Shown: piece after piece, positions 303 through 63,949 of the stretch | Layout of the letters: each line of letters opens with the position of its first letter | How positions within the stretch are numbered: position 1 is the first letter of the stretch | NCBI GenBank assembly: GCA_024790105.1 | Contig: GCA_024790105.1_3053.1 | Source: a phage | Length of the DNA: 64,000 bases | Strand: one strand, 5' to 3' | The notes under the pieces: model-generated | The model's database searches: none | Told to the model about the DNA's origin: nothing | The model's input: only the letters and a program-made list of their open reading frames with translations | Position numbers and translations under genes: made by a program

Positions 303-349
303 CAGTAGTTGATAGTTGTATAGTACCACAGTATGCTTTGGTTGTAAAC
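303..349 (-). promoter_or_regulatory. early sigma70-type promoter cassette (-35 GTTTAC, -10 TGGTACTAT, conserved leader) for motA
   Basis: minus-strand GTTTAC at 349-344, TGGTACTATACAACTATCAACTAC leader; member of repeated cassette family. Confidence 0.6.
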
Positions 350-360
350 CGTTTTGTGAA

Positions 361-400
361 AAAATTTTTGAAATAAAAAGGGAGAGCCGAGGCTCTCCCT
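361..400 (-). terminator. rho-independent terminator
   Basis: GGGAGAGCC/GGCTCTCCC hairpin 379-400 followed on minus strand by U-run (361-379). Confidence 0.6.
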
Positions 401-3675: not shown

Positions 3676-3935
3676 AGCTCAATCTCAGCGATTTTCATTT
3701 CATTACTATTAATAGCCGCTTTAAGACTATCTGAAAGAATTACATTCCAATGGTCATTCATATGACCATTAACTAAGCGTGTAATTTCTTCGGGAGTTGA
3801 AAAATAAGGCGTATCAGACTCCCAATGCGATAATCCTAAGCGAGTATAAATCATACCTTCATCATCGCTAGAATATTCAACTGACATAAACTCATCAGTT
3901 ATTTTATGTTTAGCGTAATAAAATTTAAATTTCAT
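3672..3935 (-). CDS. hypothetical protein (87 aa)
   Basis: ATG 3935 after GGAGGAGCGGAAA leader. Confidence 0.65.
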   Translation of the reverse strand: MKFKFYYAKHKITDEFMSVEYSSDDEGMIYTRLGLSHWESDTPYFSTPEEITRLVNGHMNDHWNVILSDSLKAAINSNEMKIAEIEL

Positions 3936-3945
3936 TTTCCGCTCC

Positions 3946-3993
3946 TCCGTAGTTGATAGTTGTATAGTACCACAGTCCTTGTGGTATGTAAAC
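3946..3993 (-). promoter_or_regulatory. early promoter cassette
   Basis: GTTTAC 3993-3988, conserved -10/leader block. Confidence 0.6.
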
Positions 3994-4010
3994 CGTTTTG
4001 TGAAAATTTT

Positions 4011-4568
4011 TTAAATGGAAAGATACCATCCGTTGTAGTTGCTTTTTCTTACAACCTTACGAAGGTCTTCTCTATCACCGATGAACTTCGGAGTGTACTG
4101 GATGACACCTGGGTGAATTTCTTTAGTGTTGAATATAATTATACAGTCAGCGACCTGATGATTCAGAATGGGCCCTAGATTTATTCCAGAACCGTATGGA
4201 TACTCTCCGCTACATCCTGTTGTTACAGAAATCCAACGTGAGTCAGTTTGATGTGTCTTAACTTCTACACGAAGCCCGCAGTATCTTGGATGCGCCAATA
4301 CATCCCATGCGTATGTATACGGGTCATTAACGTCCTCTTGGCCTTTGTTAACATACCCGCTTAGCCAATCTGCTACAAAAAACTCTGCGTACACCGCGAT
4401 ACGGCATCTTTCGATAACTTCTGCCTTATCCTGATTTGGATTTTGTTTTAAAGAGTATCTTGCTGTATCAGCAATTTTGACCTTCATTTCACTAGTCAAG
4501 TCACTGTTAGATAGGGTAAATGATGGAATCTGAAATAGTCTCTGCAAACCCGGATTTGTTTTCTGCAT
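4011..4568 (-). CDS. denB: endonuclease IV (DenB)
   Basis: 185-aa ORF, ATG 4568 with AAGGAAAG SD; length and position match T4 denB. Confidence 0.8.
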   Translation of the reverse strand: MQKTNPGLQRLFQIPSFTLSNSDLTSEMKVKIADTARYSLKQNPNQDKAEVIERCRIAVYAEFFVADWLSGYVNKGQEDVNDPYTYAWDVLAHPRYCGLRVEVKTHQTDSRWISVTTGCSGEYPYGSGINLGPILNHQVADCIIIFNTKEIHPGVIQYTPKFIGDREDLRKVVRKSNYNGWYLSI

Positions 4569-17817: not shown

Positions 17818-18420
17818 TTATAGATTAAATCTTTCAAAATCAAGAGTATAGATAGTGTATGTTGAATACTTTTTGTACTCATATCTATCTGCAATTCTAA
17901 ATACACTTCCAGCTGGTATCATTACTTCTTGTTCATCTGAAACTAATTCCATATTACGATAACGATGGCTATCCGGAAACTTAAAGTTTGGATTGTATTC
18001 TTTACAGCGTAGAGCTTTTATAGCATACTCCTGGAAATTGAATACCATAGGAGCTTTGAATTCAAAAATAACTTGTGTGTTATACTCTAAACCGGAAGCA
18101 AAATGTAGAGCTATATTTTTATCATATGAAGCTGATACGACTTTATCAAATATAATAATATCAATTCCTTGATTTAACACTTGCTTAGTCTCGACTGGAA
18201 CACCTCTCCAAAGAGGTTTATCGTTTGGAACCAAACGAGATTTGATTATTTCATTTAACCAAGTATGGTCATCTGGCTTATTGGTAATACAATGAATTAA
18301 AAGTTCAATTTCAGATAAATTAAACCCTTCAGAAAGCAATTCTTCACGAATAGAAGCACGCACCGATGCATCCATTGATTTTATTTTAAAATCTTTTAGT
18401 TGCATTACTGAGTATTTCAT
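17818..18420 (-). CDS. modA: ADP-ribosyltransferase ModA
   Basis: 200 aa; ATG 18420 overlapping modB stop; length and position. Confidence 0.8.
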   Translation of the reverse strand: MKYSVMQLKDFKIKSMDASVRASIREELLSEGFNLSEIELLIHCITNKPDDHTWLNEIIKSRLVPNDKPLWRGVPVETKQVLNQGIDIIIFDKVVSASYDKNIALHFASGLEYNTQVIFEFKAPMVFNFQEYAIKALRCKEYNPNFKFPDSHRYRNMELVSDEQEVMIPAGSVFRIADRYEYKKYSTYTIYTLDFERFNL

Positions 18421-19040
18421 TCAACTACCTCAATATCATAAACTTTAAATGTTCCAAATGAATCGTGTAATTTTTCTTTTGAAATAGAAGTTATTTTATA
18501 CTTTCCAATTGGAATCATCCATTCTTGTTCACGCACAATCATCATTAAGTTATCAGTACGCTCTGAATCTAGCCCATCAGTATCTTCATACGTGTACTTG
18601 AACTCAGTATTAGGAGAAGAAAGTATAATATCGCTGATATGGTCAGAGTAATTAAAAGCTTTATCAGTTTTTAAACGAAATATTATTTCAGTGAAATACT
18701 CAACATAAGAAAAAGAACATGCTGTGTGCAAACTAGTAGTAAATGAATCTACCCTGTTCGTTGAAAACACTTCTCCAACTTGTAAATCTTTAATGAGCTC
18801 TTTTGTCGATTTTGATATACCACGATATAACTGATAAGGCGATTTAGTTAAATGCTTTTTAATGATTTTATTCAACTGTCTGTGAAGAGCTTCATTCTTT
18901 TTGGCTTCCATACATTGCCAAAGAATTGACTGTTCAAAGTCAGTAAATTTTTCACAAACCTTTTTATACATATCATATTGAAAATCAACGCTTTCAGCTT
19001 TTATAGATAACTGTTCAACATCTGCAAGATTAATAATCAT
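18417..19040 (-). CDS. modB: ADP-ribosyltransferase ModB
   Basis: 207 aa; ATG 19040 with GGAGG SD. Confidence 0.8.
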   Translation of the reverse strand: MIINLADVEQLSIKAESVDFQYDMYKKVCEKFTDFEQSILWQCMEAKKNEALHRQLNKIIKKHLTKSPYQLYRGISKSTKELIKDLQVGEVFSTNRVDSFTTSLHTACSFSYVEYFTEIIFRLKTDKAFNYSDHISDIILSSPNTEFKYTYEDTDGLDSERTDNLMMIVREQEWMIPIGKYKITSISKEKLHDSFGTFKVYDIEVVE

Positions 19041-54858: not shown

Positions 54859-55074
54859 TTACCCCAGTTTGACCATGCAATCGCCGTATTTCCATTTAGA
54901 AATAGACTTTTCGCCATTAGAATAATAAACTTCGAGTTTAGCACGATTATTTTTAATTTGAATAACCTTGGCTGTCATCAAAGTTCCATACCCATAGTAA
55001 ACTGCAACTTCATCACCTACATATACCGCGCTTCCACGGTAATCATGGATATAGTCAGTTCCTTCGAGCATCAT
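54859..55074 (-). CDS. hypothetical protein (71 aa)
   Basis: ATG 55074 overlapping nrdC stop. Confidence 0.6.
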   Translation of the reverse strand: MMLEGTDYIHDYRGSAVYVGDEVAVYYGYGTLMTAKVIQIKNNRAKLEVYYSNGEKSISKWKYGDCMVKLG

Positions 55075-55334
55075 TTAAAGTATTCCCGCAATTGGTCAAA
55101 TCCACCAATATGACTTCCATCAGGAGCAAATACCTGAGGCATTGTCAAGCCGATTTGAGTATCACGACCTAGTTTAGTCAGAAGCTCAGCAATTTTCTCA
55201 TCATCAAAAACACCTTTTTCCGGCATAATGTTGATAAATTCAAATGGCTGTTTCTTCACGGTCAAAAGACGTTTTGCATTATCGCAATACACACATTTAT
55301 GGATGTTGCTATCATAACCATATACTTTAAACAT
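55071..55334 (-). CDS. nrdC: thioredoxin/glutaredoxin NrdC
   Basis: 87 aa with CVYC active site; ATG 55334 with AAGGAATAAT SD. Confidence 0.85.
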   Translation of the reverse strand: MFKVYGYDSNIHKCVYCDNAKRLLTVKKQPFEFINIMPEKGVFDDEKIAELLTKLGRDTQIGLTMPQVFAPDGSHIGGFDQLREYFK

Positions 55335-57033: not shown

Positions 57034-57561
57034 TTATGCGAGTACCGTCTTTAACCGTTCTTCAAATTTCCGAAGAGTATTCTGGCGTTCAGCTCTTTGC
57101 TTTTTGTAAGTTTCAATACGCTCTGAAATGAGAGTGTATCGTTCATTTACTGATTCTTTCATAAAATCAGGAATTTCACGAGAAGCTTTAATCTCATCAA
57201 ATTTATCAATAACAGCTTGCTCTTCAGCAATTAAGTTATCATACATCAAAATATCTTTCTTGATGAACTCAATATCTTCTTGAGTTACACGAGATAATTT
57301 AGATGCTTTATCCTTTTTGTACTGCTCATTGGTGTCACGAGACCAGTGTAATGTACGATTTTTATTCGTATTCTTGTAAATTTCTACAATACCAATCTCA
57401 TCGATAATAACGATCCAATTCCAACGAGATTTGTAAATTTGTCCTCCATCAACAGTGATTTCACCTCCGATTGAGATGTCATTAAAGAACTTGCTTTGAG
57501 CTTCAGATTTAAATTTACCATCGTTATAATTTACCAGGTTGAAAATATCTTTAGCGTTCAT
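57034..57561 (-). CDS. hypothetical protein (175 aa)
   Basis: ATG 57561 after GGAGGAACAAAA leader. Confidence 0.65.
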   Translation of the reverse strand: MNAKDIFNLVNYNDGKFKSEAQSKFFNDISIGGEITVDGGQIYKSRWNWIVIIDEIGIVEIYKNTNKNRTLHWSRDTNEQYKKDKASKLSRVTQEDIEFIKKDILMYDNLIAEEQAVIDKFDEIKASREIPDFMKESVNERYTLISERIETYKKQRAERQNTLRKFEERLKTVLA

Positions 57562-57571
57562 TTTTGTTCCT

Positions 57572-57618
57572 CCGTAGTTGATAGTTGTATAGTACCACAG
57601 AGGAACGGTCTTGTAAAC
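57572..57618 (-). promoter_or_regulatory. early promoter cassette (near-identical copy of 3441-3487)
   Basis: GTTTAC 57618-57613 with conserved -10/leader. Confidence 0.6.
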
Positions 57619-57620
57619 AA

Positions 57621-57923
57621 CTAAAAGAAACTTCTTTCACAATTTTTTCCACTGAACCAAGCGCTCACTGCTTTCTTAGTCTCAGGAGCCGTGTTATCCA
57701 TAAACCACTCAAAGGCAGCCTTTTTATGATTCTGGAGAGCTTCTCGGGCTTTAATCTGCTCACGGTCTATTAACACTAACATATGAGCCTTTCTTGTCAC
57801 CAGGGGCTTCTTATGATTCTTGGAGTATTCCCAGTCATTTGTCCATCGCATTGTTGTTGCGAATTGAAGCACAGCTTCTTTAATCTTAGTTTCGTAAATT
57901 TCACGAGCCTTTGAGTATAACAT
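57621..57923 (-). CDS. hypothetical protein (100 aa)
   Basis: ATG 57923 with GGAGGT SD. Confidence 0.55.
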   Translation of the reverse strand: MLYSKAREIYETKIKEAVLQFATTMRWTNDWEYSKNHKKPLVTRKAHMLVLIDREQIKAREALQNHKKAAFEWFMDNTAPETKKAVSAWFSGKNCERSFF

Positions 57924-58025
57924 CATTACCTCCATTCACCAGTTTAATTCTAGTCATCTTTTTAATGGCAGTCCATATAATCTATTTCTGAACTGCCTTT
58001 TTGTCTTAGAAGGCCTCTTATGAAT

Positions 58026-58994
58026 TTATTTCAGAAGAGTAACCTCAGCGATTTCTTGCCAACCGTTTTTGTCGGTCATAATAAAGTCAGCAAGATAAAG
58101 TGCAGTACGCAGTGAAACATTGCGTAAACGATTAACATTGACTTTCATCCATGATAATGCTTTATAAGTTTCTTCATCAGAAAGACCGCGCTTTTGCATC
58201 ATGTCAGTTGAAAGAATAACATCTTCAACCCTGACCATAATTTCTTCATTAGTGTGAACACCCAAATCCAAATAAACTGAGCGGGACACTAATGCTTGTA
58301 AATGTGGAGCAAGTTTAGTACCACGGTCTAATTCGCGGTCAATGTCAACGTTTGTGATAAAAACAATCGTTCCTTTAAATTCAAACTCACGCTCAATGCC
58401 TTTTTCTTCTAAGTAAGAAGATGCGGTGCTCCAGCAGACTTTACGGGTCTCTCCAGTGTCCAGAGCAGCTTTTAGAAGATTAAGAATGTCCATATCAGAG
58501 AAAACATCCACATCGTCAATCAAAAGGACAGAATTCTCTTCACGATTATTCCAGAGTTGTTCATAAAGACCGATACCGGAGATTTTACCGTTAATGCTTT
58601 TATATTCAATGTATCCAATATCATTTGCTTTATTTAAAGCTTTATCTAAAGAATACGTTTTACCAATACCCGCCGCACCAGAGATAATTAATGAACGAAT
58701 GTTTCCGTTAATAATACCATTCGTCATCATTCCCATAACATTAAATCTTTTATTAATGCGGGTTTTCATATCTTCATATGATTCTTTAACTTCTTCAACT
58801 TTTACACCATCATATGAAATGTCTGATTTGTAAACCCAAACACCGCGACGCTTACCGTCAATTTCAACAAAAACTTTACCATCTCCTTGTGCATCTACCG
58901 GAGCATTATCTGGGAACCATTCACCTAAGAGCTCAAAAGTTCCAGAGATTTCTTTACCGAAGTAGATACCCTTATTGATAGTTACAGTTTTCAT
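58026..58994 (-). CDS. P-loop ATPase (AAA+-like), 322 aa
   Basis: ATG 58994 with GGAGAATAAA SD; Walker A GAAGIGKT, Walker B VLLIDDVD. Confidence 0.7.
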   Translation of the reverse strand: MKTVTINKGIYFGKEISGTFELLGEWFPDNAPVDAQGDGKVFVEIDGKRRGVWVYKSDISYDGVKVEEVKESYEDMKTRINKRFNVMGMMTNGIINGNIRSLIISGAAGIGKTYSLDKALNKANDIGYIEYKSINGKISGIGLYEQLWNNREENSVLLIDDVDVFSDMDILNLLKAALDTGETRKVCWSTASSYLEEKGIEREFEFKGTIVFITNVDIDRELDRGTKLAPHLQALVSRSVYLDLGVHTNEEIMVRVEDVILSTDMMQKRGLSDEETYKALSWMKVNVNRLRNVSLRTALYLADFIMTDKNGWQEIAEVTLLK

Positions 58995-59010
58995 TTTATT
59001 CTCCAAATCT

Positions 59011-59061
59011 GTATCAGTAGTTGATAGTTGTATAGTACCATAAAGCTTTATGCTTGTAAAC
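59011..59061 (-). promoter_or_regulatory. early promoter cassette
   Basis: GTTTAC 59061-59056 with conserved -10/leader. Confidence 0.6.
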
Positions 59062-59070
59062 AGTTTTGTG

Positions 59071-59112
59071 AAAAAATTTTTGAAATAAAAAGGGGGACCT
59101 CTAGGGCCCCCT
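59071..59112 (-). terminator. rho-independent terminator
   Basis: GGGGGACC/GGGCCCCC hairpin plus U-run on minus strand. Confidence 0.55.
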
Positions 59113-59120
59113 TTATGCTT

Positions 59121-59606
59121 TTATTCCATTTCTATTATATGCATGTTCTTTTTGCTATCAAAATATATGTTTTTAACTGTTAACTCCGAATTAATTGGCA
59201 ATAAAAACTCTCTTTCATAATCTACCATACAAAGGTTATCATAAAGCTTGTTAAGCTTATCATCATCAGTTTGGCCAGATTCTTCAATTGCGATTAAATT
59301 TTCTAAAATGTCAATCATAGCAGTTGAATAGTCAAAAACGTTTGCATTTTTTAACACTACTAAAACATTAGTCATATAGCGTTCTGCAGCAAACGTTTCA
59401 GCTATATGAGACTCACTGCTAAAGGAAGTTATTCTTTTAAATTTGATTCTCCTATTAACTTCAAACTTATGAGATAGTACTTCCTCTATTGTAAGTCCTC
59501 TAAAAAGCACGTCTTTAATCTCAAGTTTGTCTTTAATGTAATCATTAACACGCTTATGATTAAAATCATTAATTTTGTTGCCAAGGCATTTCATTAAAAT
59601 ATGCAT
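59121..59606 (-). CDS. hypothetical protein (161 aa)
   Basis: ATG 59606 with AAGAGAAACACA SD. Confidence 0.6.
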   Translation of the reverse strand: MHILMKCLGNKINDFNHKRVNDYIKDKLEIKDVLFRGLTIEEVLSHKFEVNRRIKFKRITSFSSESHIAETFAAERYMTNVLVVLKNANVFDYSTAMIDILENLIAIEESGQTDDDKLNKLYDNLCMVDYEREFLLPINSELTVKNIYFDSKKNMHIIEME

Positions 59607-59649
59607 TGTGTTTCTCTTCAATTTTTAAAGAACAATTAATTAACTACAA

Positions 59650-59683
59650 ATATATTATAATATGCTTTATGATAGAAGTAAAC
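59650..59683 (-). promoter_or_regulatory. early promoter
   Basis: GTTTAC 59683-59678, -10 TATTATAATAT. Confidence 0.5.
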
Positions 59684-59700
59684 AACTTTGTGAAAAATTT

Positions 59701-59731
59701 TTGAAATAAAAAAGGGAGCCCGAAGGCTCCC
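59701..59731 (-). terminator. rho-independent terminator
   Basis: GGGAGCC-cgaa-GGCTCCC hairpin plus U-run on minus strand. Confidence 0.6.
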
Positions 59732-59733
59732 TA

Positions 59734-60612
59734 TCATTTATAATAACTTCGGTGGTTTTCAAGATAGACCTTCTCAAGGAAGTCATCCCAGAAACTCATG
59801 TCTACTTTTTGCTGCATACCGTTCTTAGAAGCTTCAGTAGATGCTGCTTCTACTTGATCGACCACATCTTCCAAAAACTCTTGAACTGTTTTAAATGGAT
59901 GTTTACCCAACTTCACGTCGAGAATAAATGGAGCGTCTTGAAGTGGATAAACCAAGTCACCAGTTTTGTAAATTTCCAATAGTTGAAGTCCACCACGACA
60001 AGCATGGCTCAGAGCTTTCCAGTCGATGCCTTCATTGGCTTCGGCCTTACGAGCGCGTTCACCATATTCAGCATTTAATTTGTTCAGTGACTGCTTAAGC
60101 TCAATAAGAGAAAGCGTTGTCTGATATTTACGACCCAACACAGTGTAGAACGTTTGTGGGCCTGTTTTCTCATGATTATGGAACACCCATTCACAGAATT
60201 CGTTTTCTGGAAGACGATGCTTAATATCTTCAACTTTAGTGCGACGCTGCTTAATGGAACCGTCTTCTTGGTAATCAACCCATTGCTCGGGGATTTGATT
60301 AACTACTTTCAATACATCACGTAATGCAGCCAAACGAGAACCCTTGACACCGTATTTAGAAGCTTGCTTGCGGACATATCCTAAATATGATTTCATGTTA
60401 GTCGTATAAAAACGAGAACGGTTGTCTTGAATAAACTTCCACACATCAGGCAAATCAGATTTAACCACTAGTTCAGGTGGAGTGTGAAGCATATCCAATG
60501 CTGCAGTTTCACCATCTGCTGCTAATTTAAAGAAATACTTAAGACTATACAATTCGTGGTCAATATCATCTTTAGTGTTTTTAGATGATGTGTTGTTAGT
60601 GTTTTTACTCAT
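59734..60612 (-). CDS. hypothetical protein (292 aa)
   Basis: ATG 60612. Confidence 0.7.
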   Translation of the reverse strand: MSKNTNNTSSKNTKDDIDHELYSLKYFFKLAADGETAALDMLHTPPELVVKSDLPDVWKFIQDNRSRFYTTNMKSYLGYVRKQASKYGVKGSRLAALRDVLKVVNQIPEQWVDYQEDGSIKQRRTKVEDIKHRLPENEFCEWVFHNHEKTGPQTFYTVLGRKYQTTLSLIELKQSLNKLNAEYGERARKAEANEGIDWKALSHACRGGLQLLEIYKTGDLVYPLQDAPFILDVKLGKHPFKTVQEFLEDVVDQVEAASTEASKNGMQQKVDMSFWDDFLEKVYLENHRSYYK

Positions 60613-60727
60613 GTGCTCTTTGACGTTTCCGATAAGAATATCGCGAGCAGGAGGAACAAAAATTTCTTTAAAATCTACATCAGATTCTGGGGTAGAAGTT
60701 CCATAAAGATGACTACCAAAATAAGAC

Positions 60728-60916
60728 TTAACTACTCCACCTAATCATTTCAAGATATTGAACTAACTTAGCTTTAGATTTATCCAAATCCTTTTTAGCT
60801 GCTTCTATACCGTCGTATGAATATCCTTCACAATGCTCAACTGCTAATTGATATGAATCTATTTCAATATCACGTGCTAATTTAATGATTTTTTCAAACT
60901 GTTCGCATGTTAGCAT
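60728..60916 (-). CDS. hypothetical protein (62 aa)
   Basis: ATG 60916 with GAGAG SD. Confidence 0.55.
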   Translation of the reverse strand: MLTCEQFEKIIKLARDIEIDSYQLAVEHCEGYSYDGIEAAKKDLDKSKAKLVQYLEMIRWSS

Positions 60917-60918
60917 AC

Positions 60919-61101
60919 TTAAACTCTCGTATTATGATCGATAATTTCATCAAGAAACATATCTAACGCTTCTAAAGCATTATCAACTTTAGCTTCAAAT
61001 TCTTCAATACCTGATAAGGCAAAGTTAATGCGCTCCTCATCTGCTTTACGAATTAAAGCTACCAATTCCTTAATTTTATCAGCTTGTTCGATACTAATCA
61101 T
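60919..61101 (-). CDS. hypothetical protein (60 aa)
   Basis: ATG 61101 with GGTGGA SD; ORF-track start is GTG. Confidence 0.5.
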   Translation of the reverse strand: MISIEQADKIKELVALIRKADEERINFALSGIEEFEAKVDNALEALDMFLDEIIDHNTRV

Positions 61102-61289
61102 TATTCCACCACATATGAAAGAGAGAATATTGCACACGCCATGTGAGTTGCAACTTCATCACACATATTATAACGTTTCTTAAGAAGTTCTACAAGTTCT
61201 TCACTAGTAACTTCATCCATGTCGACGAAAAAATCACCATTAATGATGACGTAGATATTTCCTTCTTGATTGAGTGCTTCAATTTTCAT
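61101..61289 (-). CDS. hypothetical protein (62 aa)
   Basis: ATG 61289 with AAGAGGAG SD directly after promoter cassette. Confidence 0.55.
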
Positions 61290-61310
61290 GATGTTCTCCT
61301 CTTTATCCGA

Positions 61311-61347
61311 TAGTTGTATAGTACCACAGCTCAAACGGAAAGTAAAC
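61311..61347 (-). promoter_or_regulatory. early promoter cassette
   Basis: GTTTAC 61347-61342, TGGTACTATACAACTATC. Confidence 0.6.
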
Positions 61348-61353
61348 CGGTAA

Positions 61354-61380
61354 AATGAAAAAAGTCTCCCGAAGGAGACT
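61354..61380 (-). terminator. rho-independent terminator
   Basis: AGTCTCC-cgaa-GGAGACT hairpin plus U-run on minus strand. Confidence 0.6.
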
Positions 61381-61384
61381 AATG

Positions 61385-61771
61385 TTATTCGAGGGAAAGA
61401 AGATACTTACTCTGGTAAAACATTCCAGTAATATCATCTATCGTGCTTTGAATGGCTGGAGGCATTTCTTTATAAATGCTGTTAGATTGGTCTAGTATGT
61501 GATCAATCATTTTAATTGTGTCGGTAGGAAGTTTACTGGCATCTGGAATTGAAGGTGTGTATTTTCTACCAGAATACCCCAAATATTGCTCACCAAATTT
61601 ATCAATCAAATCTGGCAACTCGGAGAAAATAAAATCGTATGCTTTGTGTCTAGCATAACTTTTAGTTTCAAAATGTGCAGAATGAAAATAAGCTTGTGCA
61701 GCCATTAATAAACCTAAGTATTCATCTGCCTTTGAAGGTTTTCCACTTTGTGAAAAGTCGCTGAATTTCAT
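61385..61771 (-). CDS. hypothetical protein (128 aa)
   Basis: ATG 61771 with GGAGACTGA SD. Confidence 0.65.
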
Positions 61772-62061
61772 TCAGTCTCCAATTTAATGTTCATAATTCT
61801 AGCGTATGATTGTGCCATCTCCGCGCCTCGTTCTATACATTCAAAATCAGAAGAGCACGGGTCATTTTTATAGGTCGTTCTCATAAAACTATAGAATTGT
61901 TCAGACGATTCTACGCTTTTATTTTCAAAAAGCATATAAACGTGCCTAATACCAGATTCCATAAATTTATCAAAATGAGGATCGACATTCGCTTCAATTG
62001 ATGGAGATAAAACAAATGACAATCCTAGCATGGCAAATAGTGCCGTTGCTTTTAAGGCCAT
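61768..62061 (-). CDS. rI: lysis-inhibition protein RI-like (97 aa, signal-anchor)
   Basis: ATG 62061 with GGAGG SD; N-terminal hydrophobic segment; length and position upstream of tk. Confidence 0.7.
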   Translation of the reverse strand: MALKATALFAMLGLSFVLSPSIEANVDPHFDKFMESGIRHVYMLFENKSVESSEQFYSFMRTTYKNDPCSSDFECIERGAEMAQSYARIMNIKLETE

Positions 62062-62328: not shown

Positions 62329-62910
62329 CTAACCGAGCTTTTTAGTTAATTCATTCCAATGTTTTCTGCACAAAGAAACATAAATTTCATCACCAATACA
62401 GATTTGATTACCTTCTTTAACTGGTGTTCCATCTTCCATTAATCGAGCTGTCATAATCGCTTTTTTGCCGCAATGACAGACTGCTTTCAGTTCAATAAGT
62501 TTATCTGCAATCGCTAAAAGTTCTTTAGAACCTTCAAACAATTTTCCAGCGAAATCAGTCCTTAATCCATAAGCCATAACAGGAACATTATATGTATCAA
62601 CAATTCGGCTCAATTGATGTACTTGTTCAGTTTTTAAAAACTGAGCTTCATCTACAAATACGCAATGAATATCTTTTTGTGCTTCAGCCCATTTATAGAA
62701 TTCGAAAATGTCCATATCATCTGTAATAATATTCGCTTCCTGCTTAATTCCAATGCGAGAAACGACTTCACAGACAGAATCGCGAGTATCAATAGCAGGC
62801 TTAAGAACTAATACACTCATTCCACGTTCTTTATAATTATGTGCAGCAGTCAAAAGAGAAGCAGATTTTCCAGCATTCATTGCTGCATAAGTAAAAATTA
62901 AACTCGCCAT
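62329..62910 (-). CDS. tk: thymidine kinase
   Basis: 193 aa; P-loop AMNAGKS and zinc CHCGK...C motif; ATG 62910. Confidence 0.9.
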   Translation of the reverse strand: MASLIFTYAAMNAGKSASLLTAAHNYKERGMSVLVLKPAIDTRDSVCEVVSRIGIKQEANIITDDMDIFEFYKWAEAQKDIHCVFVDEAQFLKTEQVHQLSRIVDTYNVPVMAYGLRTDFAGKLFEGSKELLAIADKLIELKAVCHCGKKAIMTARLMEDGTPVKEGNQICIGDEIYVSLCRKHWNELTKKLG

Positions 62911-63484: not shown

Positions 63485-63687
63485 GTAACCTTTAAGCAAT
63501 ATTCTTCTACATGTTGTTTACGACCTTTCTTATCAATAAAGGTATATTCAACGAATGTTCCAATGTAGTCTTTATCTACATCATGTGGACTATTAATTGG
63601 ACATTTAGTACGGCAAATGCGTTCCCATTGACGAATAATTTCCACTTTGTTTTTAGGATCAAACGGATGTGGGTAATGTACTTTCAT
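63475..63687 (-). CDS. hypothetical protein (70 aa)
   Basis: ATG 63687 with GGTGGATT SD. Confidence 0.6.
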   Translation of the reverse strand: MKVHYPHPFDPKNKVEIIRQWERICRTKCPINSPHDVDKDYIGTFVEYTFIDKKGRKQHVEEYCLKVTWL

Positions 63688-63949
63688 AATCCACCACTAT
63701 TAAATCAATATCAGGAGTAAACATGTCGATTAATTTAGAAACCTTATCCCAATCACCGCCAGCAATACCACAACCTATGCGTGGAATATAAATTACTGGT
63801 TTAAACAAAAGGGTTTCTGCCTGTAGATTTAATTCTATCATGCAGTTTACTAAAGCACCATAATCAAGATTAGGACCTGGTTCGTATTGCGTATACAAGT
63901 TATAACATATGCCAAAACCATTAGGTTTATGTTTAAAAACAATAGACAT
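63659..63949 (-). CDS. hypothetical protein (96 aa; frame stays open to window end, so may extend upstream)
   Basis: ATG 63949 with GGTGAT SD; no in-frame stop between 63950 and 64000. Confidence 0.5.
   Translation of the reverse strand: MSIVFKHKPNGFGICYNLYTQYEPGPNLDYGALVNCMIELNLQAETLLFKPVIYIPRIGCGIAGGDWDKVSKLIDMFTPDIDLIVVDYESTLPTSV

Follow-up and report, generated by a model that had tools for sequence, protein, structure and literature searches.

Do the neighbouring open reading frames (ORFs) of a T4-like phage locus work as one module, or are they independent genes separated by terminators and promoters? The question is raised by positions 58026-60612 of a phage contig (GCA_024790105.1_3053.1, NCBI GenBank assembly GCA_024790105.1), of which a stretch of 64,000 nt was analysed; this whole stretch is called the window here. 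A sequence-only reading of the window had described the interval as a promoter-driven P-loop ATPase gene of 322 aa followed by two unknown genes of 161 and 292 aa, each fenced by terminators. The analysis answers the question, with good confidence, in favour of three functionally independent genes, with an ADP-ribosyltransferase (ART) gene that is bounded by two promoter-early stem-loops (PeSLs) and was inserted as a cassette between a start-less nrdC.11 and nrdC.10. This answer is carried by the identities of the genes, the anatomy of the PeSLs, the empty site of T4 and a high identity across genera that is specific to the cassette.

The three ORFs are present in the interval, but all of its genes lie on the minus strand in the ORF listing, and the order of transcription is 292-aa ORF, 161-aa ORF and 322-aa ORF, the reverse of the order described before. 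Host RNA polymerase would read the interval leftward from T4-type early promoters. The best nucleotide matches of the 2.9-kb interval are Salmonella phage Manna (97.8%) and Escherichia phage T2 (97.6%), and none exceeds 99%. The window is assigned to Tequatrovirus, as a T2/T4-like phage closest to T2 and Manna. Under the match, the T2 reference record lists nrdC.11 ("nucleotidyltransferase", 1011 nt), an unnamed 486-nt gene annotated as "RNA polymerase ADP-ribosylase", nrdC.10 (969 nt) and nrdC.9. The two supposed unknowns are thus annotated in T2 records already, and both fall into named families. The interval belongs to the hyperplastic region between tk/rI and nrdC, and the earlier reading was right to see a modular and insulated arrangement within a variable part of a T4-like genome.

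PeSLs and the ADP-ribosyltransferase cassette

PeSLs were described as composite elements in T4-type phages by Arbiol et al. (2010, PMC2839356) and Comeau et al. (2014, PMC4122927): a terminator stem-loop comes first, next an AT-rich stretch and an early promoter of the sigma-70-like type, and last a Shine-Dalgarno sequence with its ATG. The T4/PST early-promoter consensus is TTTACW-N17-TAYWAT (PMC4122927). Tandem PeSLs recombine, and the intervening ORF is excised or inserted as a mini-circle (PMC2839356). The features around the 161-aa gene are as follows.

59654-59732, minus strand: PeSL-1, with hairpin AGGGAGCCTTCGGGCTCCCT and T-run (59732-59713), AT-rich stretch and promoter GTTTACT-N17-TATAAT (59683-59654)
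59121-59606, minus strand: 161-aa predicted short Mod-family ART, with R36 (59499-59501), S61 (59424-59426), E131 (59214-59216) and E133 (59208-59210)
59032-59111, minus strand: PeSL-2, with hairpin GGGGGCCCTAGAGGTCCCCC and T-run (59111-59093), AT-rich stretch and promoter GTTTACA-N17-TACTAT with a TG extension (59061-59032)
59055-59689, minus strand: putative mobile cassette; its promoter and ribosome-binding site precede the ART gene, and a terminator hairpin and AT-rich DNA follow it as far as the next -35 hexamer

The PeSL-1 hairpin directly follows the 292-aa ORF and has 8 bp, 6 of them GC (-17.7 kcal/mol, z -4.4). The PeSL-2 hairpin directly follows the 161-aa ORF and has 7 bp, 6 of them GC (-15.3 kcal/mol). 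In both elements the promoter starts about 30 nt past the hairpin, and the AT-rich stretch, the Shine-Dalgarno sequence and the ATG can be read from the sequence. The pattern GTTTACW-N17-TAYWAT has 18 exact matches in the window, all on the minus strand, versus 0.09 expected by chance. One of these is the PeSL-2 promoter, which drives nrdC.10, so the 322-aa gene does have a promoter of its own as proposed. The hairpin-to-(-35) stretches of PeSL-1 and PeSL-2 form a 44-nt direct repeat (80% identical) that flanks the ART gene. The "fences" are identified as two PeSLs, and these flank the ART gene only. Separate bracketing, as had been suggested for both unknowns, therefore holds for the 161-aa gene, which is fenced on both sides, but not for the 292-aa ORF, which has no fence at its 5' side and abuts a 62-aa ORF. 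Each PeSL would close one transcript and open the next. Insulation, the only role first given to the fences, is too narrow, because the published role of PeSLs includes recombination too.

The AT-rich/-35 core of PeSL-2 also recurs 58.7 kb away, at window positions 344-377 (minus strand), with 1 mismatch in 34 nt. This copy adjoins an early promoter (320-349) and is a possible long-range recombination partner.

The 161-aa protein resembles both Mod enzymes that the window encodes. In BLASTP it matched ModB (18417-19040, minus strand, 207 aa) with 30% identity (E 5e-14) and ModA (17818-18420, minus strand, 200 aa) with 28% identity (E 1e-10), and it matched PHROG 832 with an E value of 9e-24. 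When 20 sequences including ModA and ModB were aligned, only R36, G37, S61, Y77, E131 and E133 were invariant; R36, S61 and E131/E133 give the R / S / E-x-E signature of arginine-type mono-ADP-ribosyltransferases. The Mod family has been placed in the R-S-E clade (Tiemann et al. 2004, as cited in PMC9503650). The AlphaFold2 model (pLDDT 92.5) has an ART fold. A HMMER search of 1.84 billion representatives returned only 16 relatives at E values up to 0.001, the closest being 175-189-aa proteins of metagenomic contigs, some of T4-like size. For three close relatives, P0001 (94% identical), P0002 and P0003, Pfam PF26816 (Mod_ADP_RT) is given as a precomputed label. NCBIfam and PADLOC scans of the protein returned nothing, a PDB sequence search gave no significant match, and a pattern search of IMG/VR for the wider family found Moon-like contigs only. 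These results classify the 161-aa protein as a short ModA/ModB-like R-S-ExE ADP-ribosyltransferase.

The likeness to T4 ModA and ModB (28-30% identity) extends over about 140 residues, and the R-G, S and E-x-E residues, the predicted ART fold and the early expression are all shared. In contrast, the 161-aa enzyme is about 40 residues shorter at the N-terminus than ModA and ModB (161 versus 200 and 207 aa), its gene lies about 40 kb from modA-modB in a cassette of its own, and it groups with a small set of 160-190-aa relatives, mostly from metagenomic T4-like contigs. By analogy with its relatives, it would perform early NAD+-dependent arginine ADP-ribosylation of host proteins. ModB performs RNAylation (PMC10468400). 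The earlier suggestion that host-modulating genes sit in this region is borne out by the 161-aa gene, as one for a ModA/ModB-family enzyme.

The window thus encodes three Mod-type ADP-ribosyltransferases (modA, modB and the 161-aa enzyme). A few kb from the cassette, in the tk.x region, a 96-aa ORF (63659-63949, minus strand) may, judged by eye, be a tk.4-type A1pp/macro-domain protein as described in PMC1524935, and possibly an ADP-ribose-binding or -removing protein.

The cassette is 0.63 kb long and its presence differs among close relatives. In T4, nrdC.11 and nrdC.10 are parted by a single 114-nt spacer with no ART gene, and this spacer is one hybrid PeSL made of the PeSL-1 hairpin and the PeSL-2 promoter, as expected of an empty site. 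A 761-nt cassette query matched 524 phage records, of which 42 (about 8%) cover at least 80% of it; in most of the other matching records sampled, T4 included, only the PeSL parts were matched. In HY03 (3687-4096 of the locus extract), the same nrdC.11/nrdC.10 site holds two unrelated small ORFs of 150 nt and 264 nt, the latter a DUF4031 ORF, and the PeSL site appears to accept different cargo.

The same cassette was found in another genus. Citrobacter phage Moon (genus Moonvirus) carries it directly upstream of its own nrdC.10. Between the window and Moon, the promoter-to-ATG segment and the ART coding sequence are 96% identical, versus 66% for nrdC.11 and 73% for nrdC.10. Megablast aligns Moon with positions 59055-59689 in one block (94% identity), each end of which coincides with or adjoins a -35 hexamer. 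More distant relatives of the ART gene were found at other places. One, 62% identical, lies between regA and DNA polymerase gene 43 in the T4-like Logan contig ERR12726568_1671 (3001-3546), and thus within the conserved replication module, with its own promoter-like site and a GGGCCTTCGGGCCC terminator. Another, 54% identical, lies downstream of an RlaP gene and has a hairpin on either side. The called 181-aa ORF of the relative next to gene 43 probably starts too early, and its MHILMACLG aligns with the start of the window protein.

These comparisons indicate that the ART gene behaves as a self-contained, mobile expression cassette. The PeSL sequence of about 45 nt that is shared by both ends would provide the homology for insertion of the cassette between nrdC.11 and nrdC.10, and also for its loss. 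Transfer is inferred to have run through recombination at the PeSLs, either by a mini-circle or by homologous exchange. The arrangement agrees with published PeSLs in that two tandem elements surround one variable ORF in a hyperplastic region, and in that presence or absence among close relatives maps to the PeSLs. It differs from them in that the cargo is an enzyme of a known family rather than an ORFan, and in that the same cassette is present in two genera (Tequatrovirus and Moonvirus).

nrdC.11 and nrdC.10 on either side of the cassette

Upstream of the cassette, the 292-aa ORF (59734-60612) begins at the internal Met45 of a 336-codon nrdC.11 frame. The nrdC.11 homologues of T2, Manna, HY03, F13076 and T4 all have 336 aa (1011 nt), and the length of 292 aa is read as an artefact of ORF calling. 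The relevant features are as follows.

59734-60744, minus strand: nrdC.11 frame, 336 codons, predicted RlaP-family nucleotidyltransferase, open from 60744
60673-60717, minus strand: Pol-beta-type motif GSHLYGTSTPESDVD (G10-S11 ... D22-x-D24), read from the translation, upstream of the sole available start codon
60735-60736, minus strand: junction of a 12-bp deletion (ATAATGAAAACT) relative to HY03 and F13076, from a five-way alignment and BLAST breakpoints (60736/60735)
60728-60916, minus strand: mobD.3-like 62-aa ORF immediately 5' of nrdC.11, with a C-terminus truncated by the 12-bp deletion

The 336-codon reading scores 43.5 bits against Pfam RlaP (PF10127, cut-off 23), whereas the 292-aa ORF scores 21.4 bits and stays below the cut-off. 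NrdC.11 also matches the PHROG 388 nucleotidyltransferase family (E 3e-134), and a weak NTP_transf_2 match covers its residues 9-26; a PDB sequence search gave no significant match. On these matches, nrdC.11 is assigned as an RlaP-family RNA 3'-nucleotidyltransferase gene. The Pseudomonas RlaPs (PfRlaP/PaRlaP) add 1-2 nucleotides to the 3'-OH of damaged RNAs and need three conserved aspartates, and T4 NrdC.11 has been named as a member of the family (December 2025 preprint, PMC12776372). A host-modulating role, as suggested before, is plausible for NrdC.11 too, since RlaPs act on damaged RNA 3' ends (PMC12776372). The 336-codon NrdC.11 is like these enzymes in exceeding the Pfam threshold and in its GS...DxD motif. 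It differs in falling into another sequence cluster (cluster 5) than the characterised Pseudomonas RlaPs, in having no adjoining RNA ligase gene in the window, and in that its start codon is deleted in this genome.

The 12-bp deletion takes out the nrdC.11 ATG and the next two codons, and no in-frame ATG, GTG or TTG exists between the TGA at 60747-60745 and position 60612. The catalytic GS...DxD motif is still encoded, but no start codon precedes it. The gene keeps its place in the RlaP family, yet a working product is doubtful in this genome. T4 survives the loss of the fragment that extends from nrdC.11 to mobD.3 (PMC9825161). Most likely, a dispensable gene has been inactivated by a recent deletion. 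The catalytic N-terminus of NrdC.11 is probably not made in this phage, which would leave an inactive gene or at best a truncated 292-aa product.

On the other side of the cassette, and around the three genes, the following features were found.

58026-58994, minus strand: nrdC.10, 322-aa AAA+ ATPase, with Walker A (58656-58679) and Walker B (58506-58529)
57967-57997, minus strand: hairpin 3' of nrdC.10, 9 bp, 13-nt loop, no U-tract, z -2.05
57621-57935, minus strand: nrdC.9, downstream of nrdC.10
61318-61380, minus strand: upstream PeSL, with hairpin (61380-61363) and exact early-promoter match (61347-61318)
62329-62910, minus strand: thymidine kinase gene, T-even flanking gene
61768-62061, minus strand: rI, T-even flanking gene
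55071-55334, minus strand: nrdC, T-even flanking gene

The assignment of the 322-aa protein as a P-loop ATPase was confirmed. Its Walker A (GAAGIGKT, residues 106-113) and Walker B (LLIDD, D160/D161) are invariant in 26 homologues. In the model (pLDDT 89.8), a small beta domain occupies residues 1-62 at the N-terminus; a long helix, the AAA+ core and a lid made of helices make up the rest. The features of an AAA+ ATPase, namely Walker A/B, sensor 1, an arginine-finger region, sensor 2 and an alpha/beta core with lid, are all present. NrdC.10 was compared with the clamp-loader, ORC-Cdc6, RuvB and MoxR groups of AAA+ proteins, and the best match of its family profile among solved structures is Cdc6, with an E value of only 0.12. 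A PDB sequence search gave no significant match, and Pfam, NCBIfam and PADLOC scans returned nothing or AAA matches below the cut-off. A role in nucleic-acid loading or remodelling is a guess, suggested by a weak motif resemblance to clamp loaders and initiators. NrdC.10 has 1008 homologues; the best 120 of them are 53-100% identical and include proteins of Escherichia, Salmonella, Serratia, Yersinia, Erwinia, Acinetobacter and Aeromonas phages and of a Vibrio contig. Across many T4-like genera the protein identity is 53-79%. Such breadth of conservation is typical of an important rather than an accessory gene, so the accessory, anti-defence setting proposed for the ATPase does not suit NrdC.10, which is strongly conserved and which nothing in this analysis links to anti-defence. 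A 178,964-bp ENA metagenomic phage contig encodes the NrdC.10 homologue P0123 and apparently also P0127, a relative of the short Mod-type ART; in the 9 kb examined, their genes do not lie side by side.

The terminator that had been reported after the 322-aa gene was not recovered. The terminator scan flagged none downstream of nrdC.10, and the only hairpin there is the U-tract-less one at 57997-57967, which 8 of 200 shuffled sequences equalled in folding. The annotation of phage G2133 also gives just two terminators across the same span. Such a hairpin falls short of a canonical terminator, so transcription of nrdC.10 probably continues into nrdC.9. In the terminator and promoter scans, nrdC.11 has no promoter of its own, and its nearest upstream hairpin/promoter pair is the upstream PeSL (61380-61318), which heads a unit of mobD.5-like, mobD.4-like and mobD.3-like genes and nrdC.11 (gene names by comparison with T2). 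A structured RNA was considered and rejected, as an Rfam scan of 57500-61500 yielded only matches below the gathering score.

The stretch from rI.-1 to nrdC.11 is strongly variable. In the window (60728-61347) it holds just three small mobD.5/.4/.3-like ORFs. T2 (541-2980 of the locus extract) has about 1.9 kb more between rI.-1 and nrdC.11 than the window, and in T4 (239-2533 of the locus extract) the HNH homing endonuclease gene mobD overlaps the start of nrdC.11.

Alternative readings of the locus

Some results weigh against the reading of three independent genes with an inserted cassette. The Pfam scan gave no match for the 161-aa protein, nor for ModA or ModB, with a Pfam copy that holds no Mod model. 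The left Moon breakpoint lies a few bases upstream of the -35 hexamer, whereas Arbiol et al. favour the AT-rich stretch. The segment from the ART stop codon to the -35 hexamer is only 85% identical to Moon, and the crossovers can thus be placed only approximately. The 12-bp deletion may have arisen in assembly, and the 44 nrdC.11 codons upstream of Met45 are still intact, which leaves room for expression by an unusual route.

It is unlikely, although less so than for the other alternatives, that the 12-bp gap is a sequencing or assembly artefact and that nrdC.11 is intact in the real phage. The gap is seen in this window alone: no other phage record, IMG/VR contig or called protein in the exact look-up carries the deletion, its junction 22-mer is absent from IMG/VR, and the exact 62-aa mobD.3-like product is not on record elsewhere. 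However, a clean loss of 12 bp that stays in frame for both overlapping ORFs and falls in non-repetitive sequence is atypical of sequencing error, and the dispensability of nrdC.11 in T4 (PMC9825161) makes a real loss plausible.

The hairpins and promoters could also be merely regulatory, with the ART gene having arrived by illegitimate recombination or as collateral of the activity of the homing endonuclease mobD. The HNH endonuclease gene mobD lies directly upstream of T4 nrdC.11 (PMC2988022), the interval upstream of nrdC.11 varies strongly among phages, and the crossover points are not fixed to the base, all of which would suit such a history. It is nevertheless quite unlikely, as both ends of the Moon block fall within PeSLs, at or beside the -35 hexamers, the empty site of T4 is exactly a hybrid of the two PeSLs, and in other contigs, too, the ART relatives examined lie between a promoter-like site and a downstream hairpin. 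Movement of the cassette through its PeSLs remains the preferred reading.

A third possibility is that full-length nrdC.11 is still expressed, either from a non-canonical start behind the Shine-Dalgarno sequence AGGTGGAG (which is followed by GTA GTT) or by a +1 shift at the AGT-TAA-G stop of the upstream ORF. The 44 codons before Met45 form an open frame that hardly differs from T2, the original ribosome-binding site is kept, and a +1 shift at the stop of the upstream ORF would enter the nrdC.11 frame. Against this, the frame offers no ATG, GTG or TTG in the stretch named above and neither GTA nor GTT is known to serve as a start codon in E. coli. The deletion is seen nowhere else, so the open frame may just reflect its recency. 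A programmed +1 frameshift that fuses the mobD.3-like ORF to nrdC.11 was judged unlikely, because the AGU-to-GUU re-pairing would be poor and HY03 and F13076 share the AGT-TAA-G context while their nrdC.11 starts with a normal ATG. Expression of the full-length protein is very unlikely by either route, and a gene inactivated by loss of its start codon is preferred.

Least probable of all is a joint action of the three genes as a single module, such as an anti-defence system of ATPase, ART and nucleotidyltransferase in which the terminators only tune relative expression. In its favour, the genes are adjacent, on the same strand and all early, an RlaP gene lies next to nrdC.10 in T4, T2, Moon and Acinetobacter phage ZZ1, and the 54%-identical ART relative likewise lies downstream of an RlaP gene. 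Against it, ART is present in only about 8% of the matching records (42/524) and absent from T4, HY03 has unrelated cargo, one ART relative sits between regA and gene 43, NrdC.10 has no RlaP nearby in Aeromonas phage 31, the Vibrio contig and a 179-kb metagenomic phage, the start codon is gone from nrdC.11 but both other genes are intact, and PADLOC found no matches. A conserved two-gene system of RlaP and AAA+ ATPase was rejected as well, since distant NrdC.10 homologues have no RlaP neighbour.

Meaning for T-even phages

Every component of the locus is of a kind already described, namely PeSLs, Mod ADP-ribosyltransferases, RlaP nucleotidyltransferases and AAA+ ATPases. What is new is modest: a cassette with PeSLs at its ends, a recognisable enzyme as its cargo and almost no change between genera, and the strain-specific loss of the nrdC.11 start codon, a curiosity consistent with the dispensability of the gene in the laboratory. 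Beyond these points the region is largely ordinary and already explained.

T4 is the textbook host-reprogramming phage and has three ADP-ribosyltransferases (PMC10468400). T2 and about 8% of the matching phage records (42/524) have one Mod-type enzyme more than T4. No experimental work on the 161-aa ART was found in the literature searched. Since the gene travels as a complete expression cassette, it would be easy to add to T4 or to delete from T2. The locus is also an unusually clean natural example of PeSL action, in which the site is empty in T4, filled in the window, occupied by other cargo in HY03, and the same cargo is found at 96% identity in another genus. Tentatively, the 161-aa enzyme may be a fourth, horizontally mobile T-even ADP-ribosyltransferase beside ModA and ModB, with a different target or chemistry (for example a host defence protein, or ModB-like transfer to RNA chains), which spreads between genera as a promoter-gene-terminator plug-in; independently of this, NrdC.10, as a conserved AAA+ factor, may serve T4-like phages in a way so far unrecognised.

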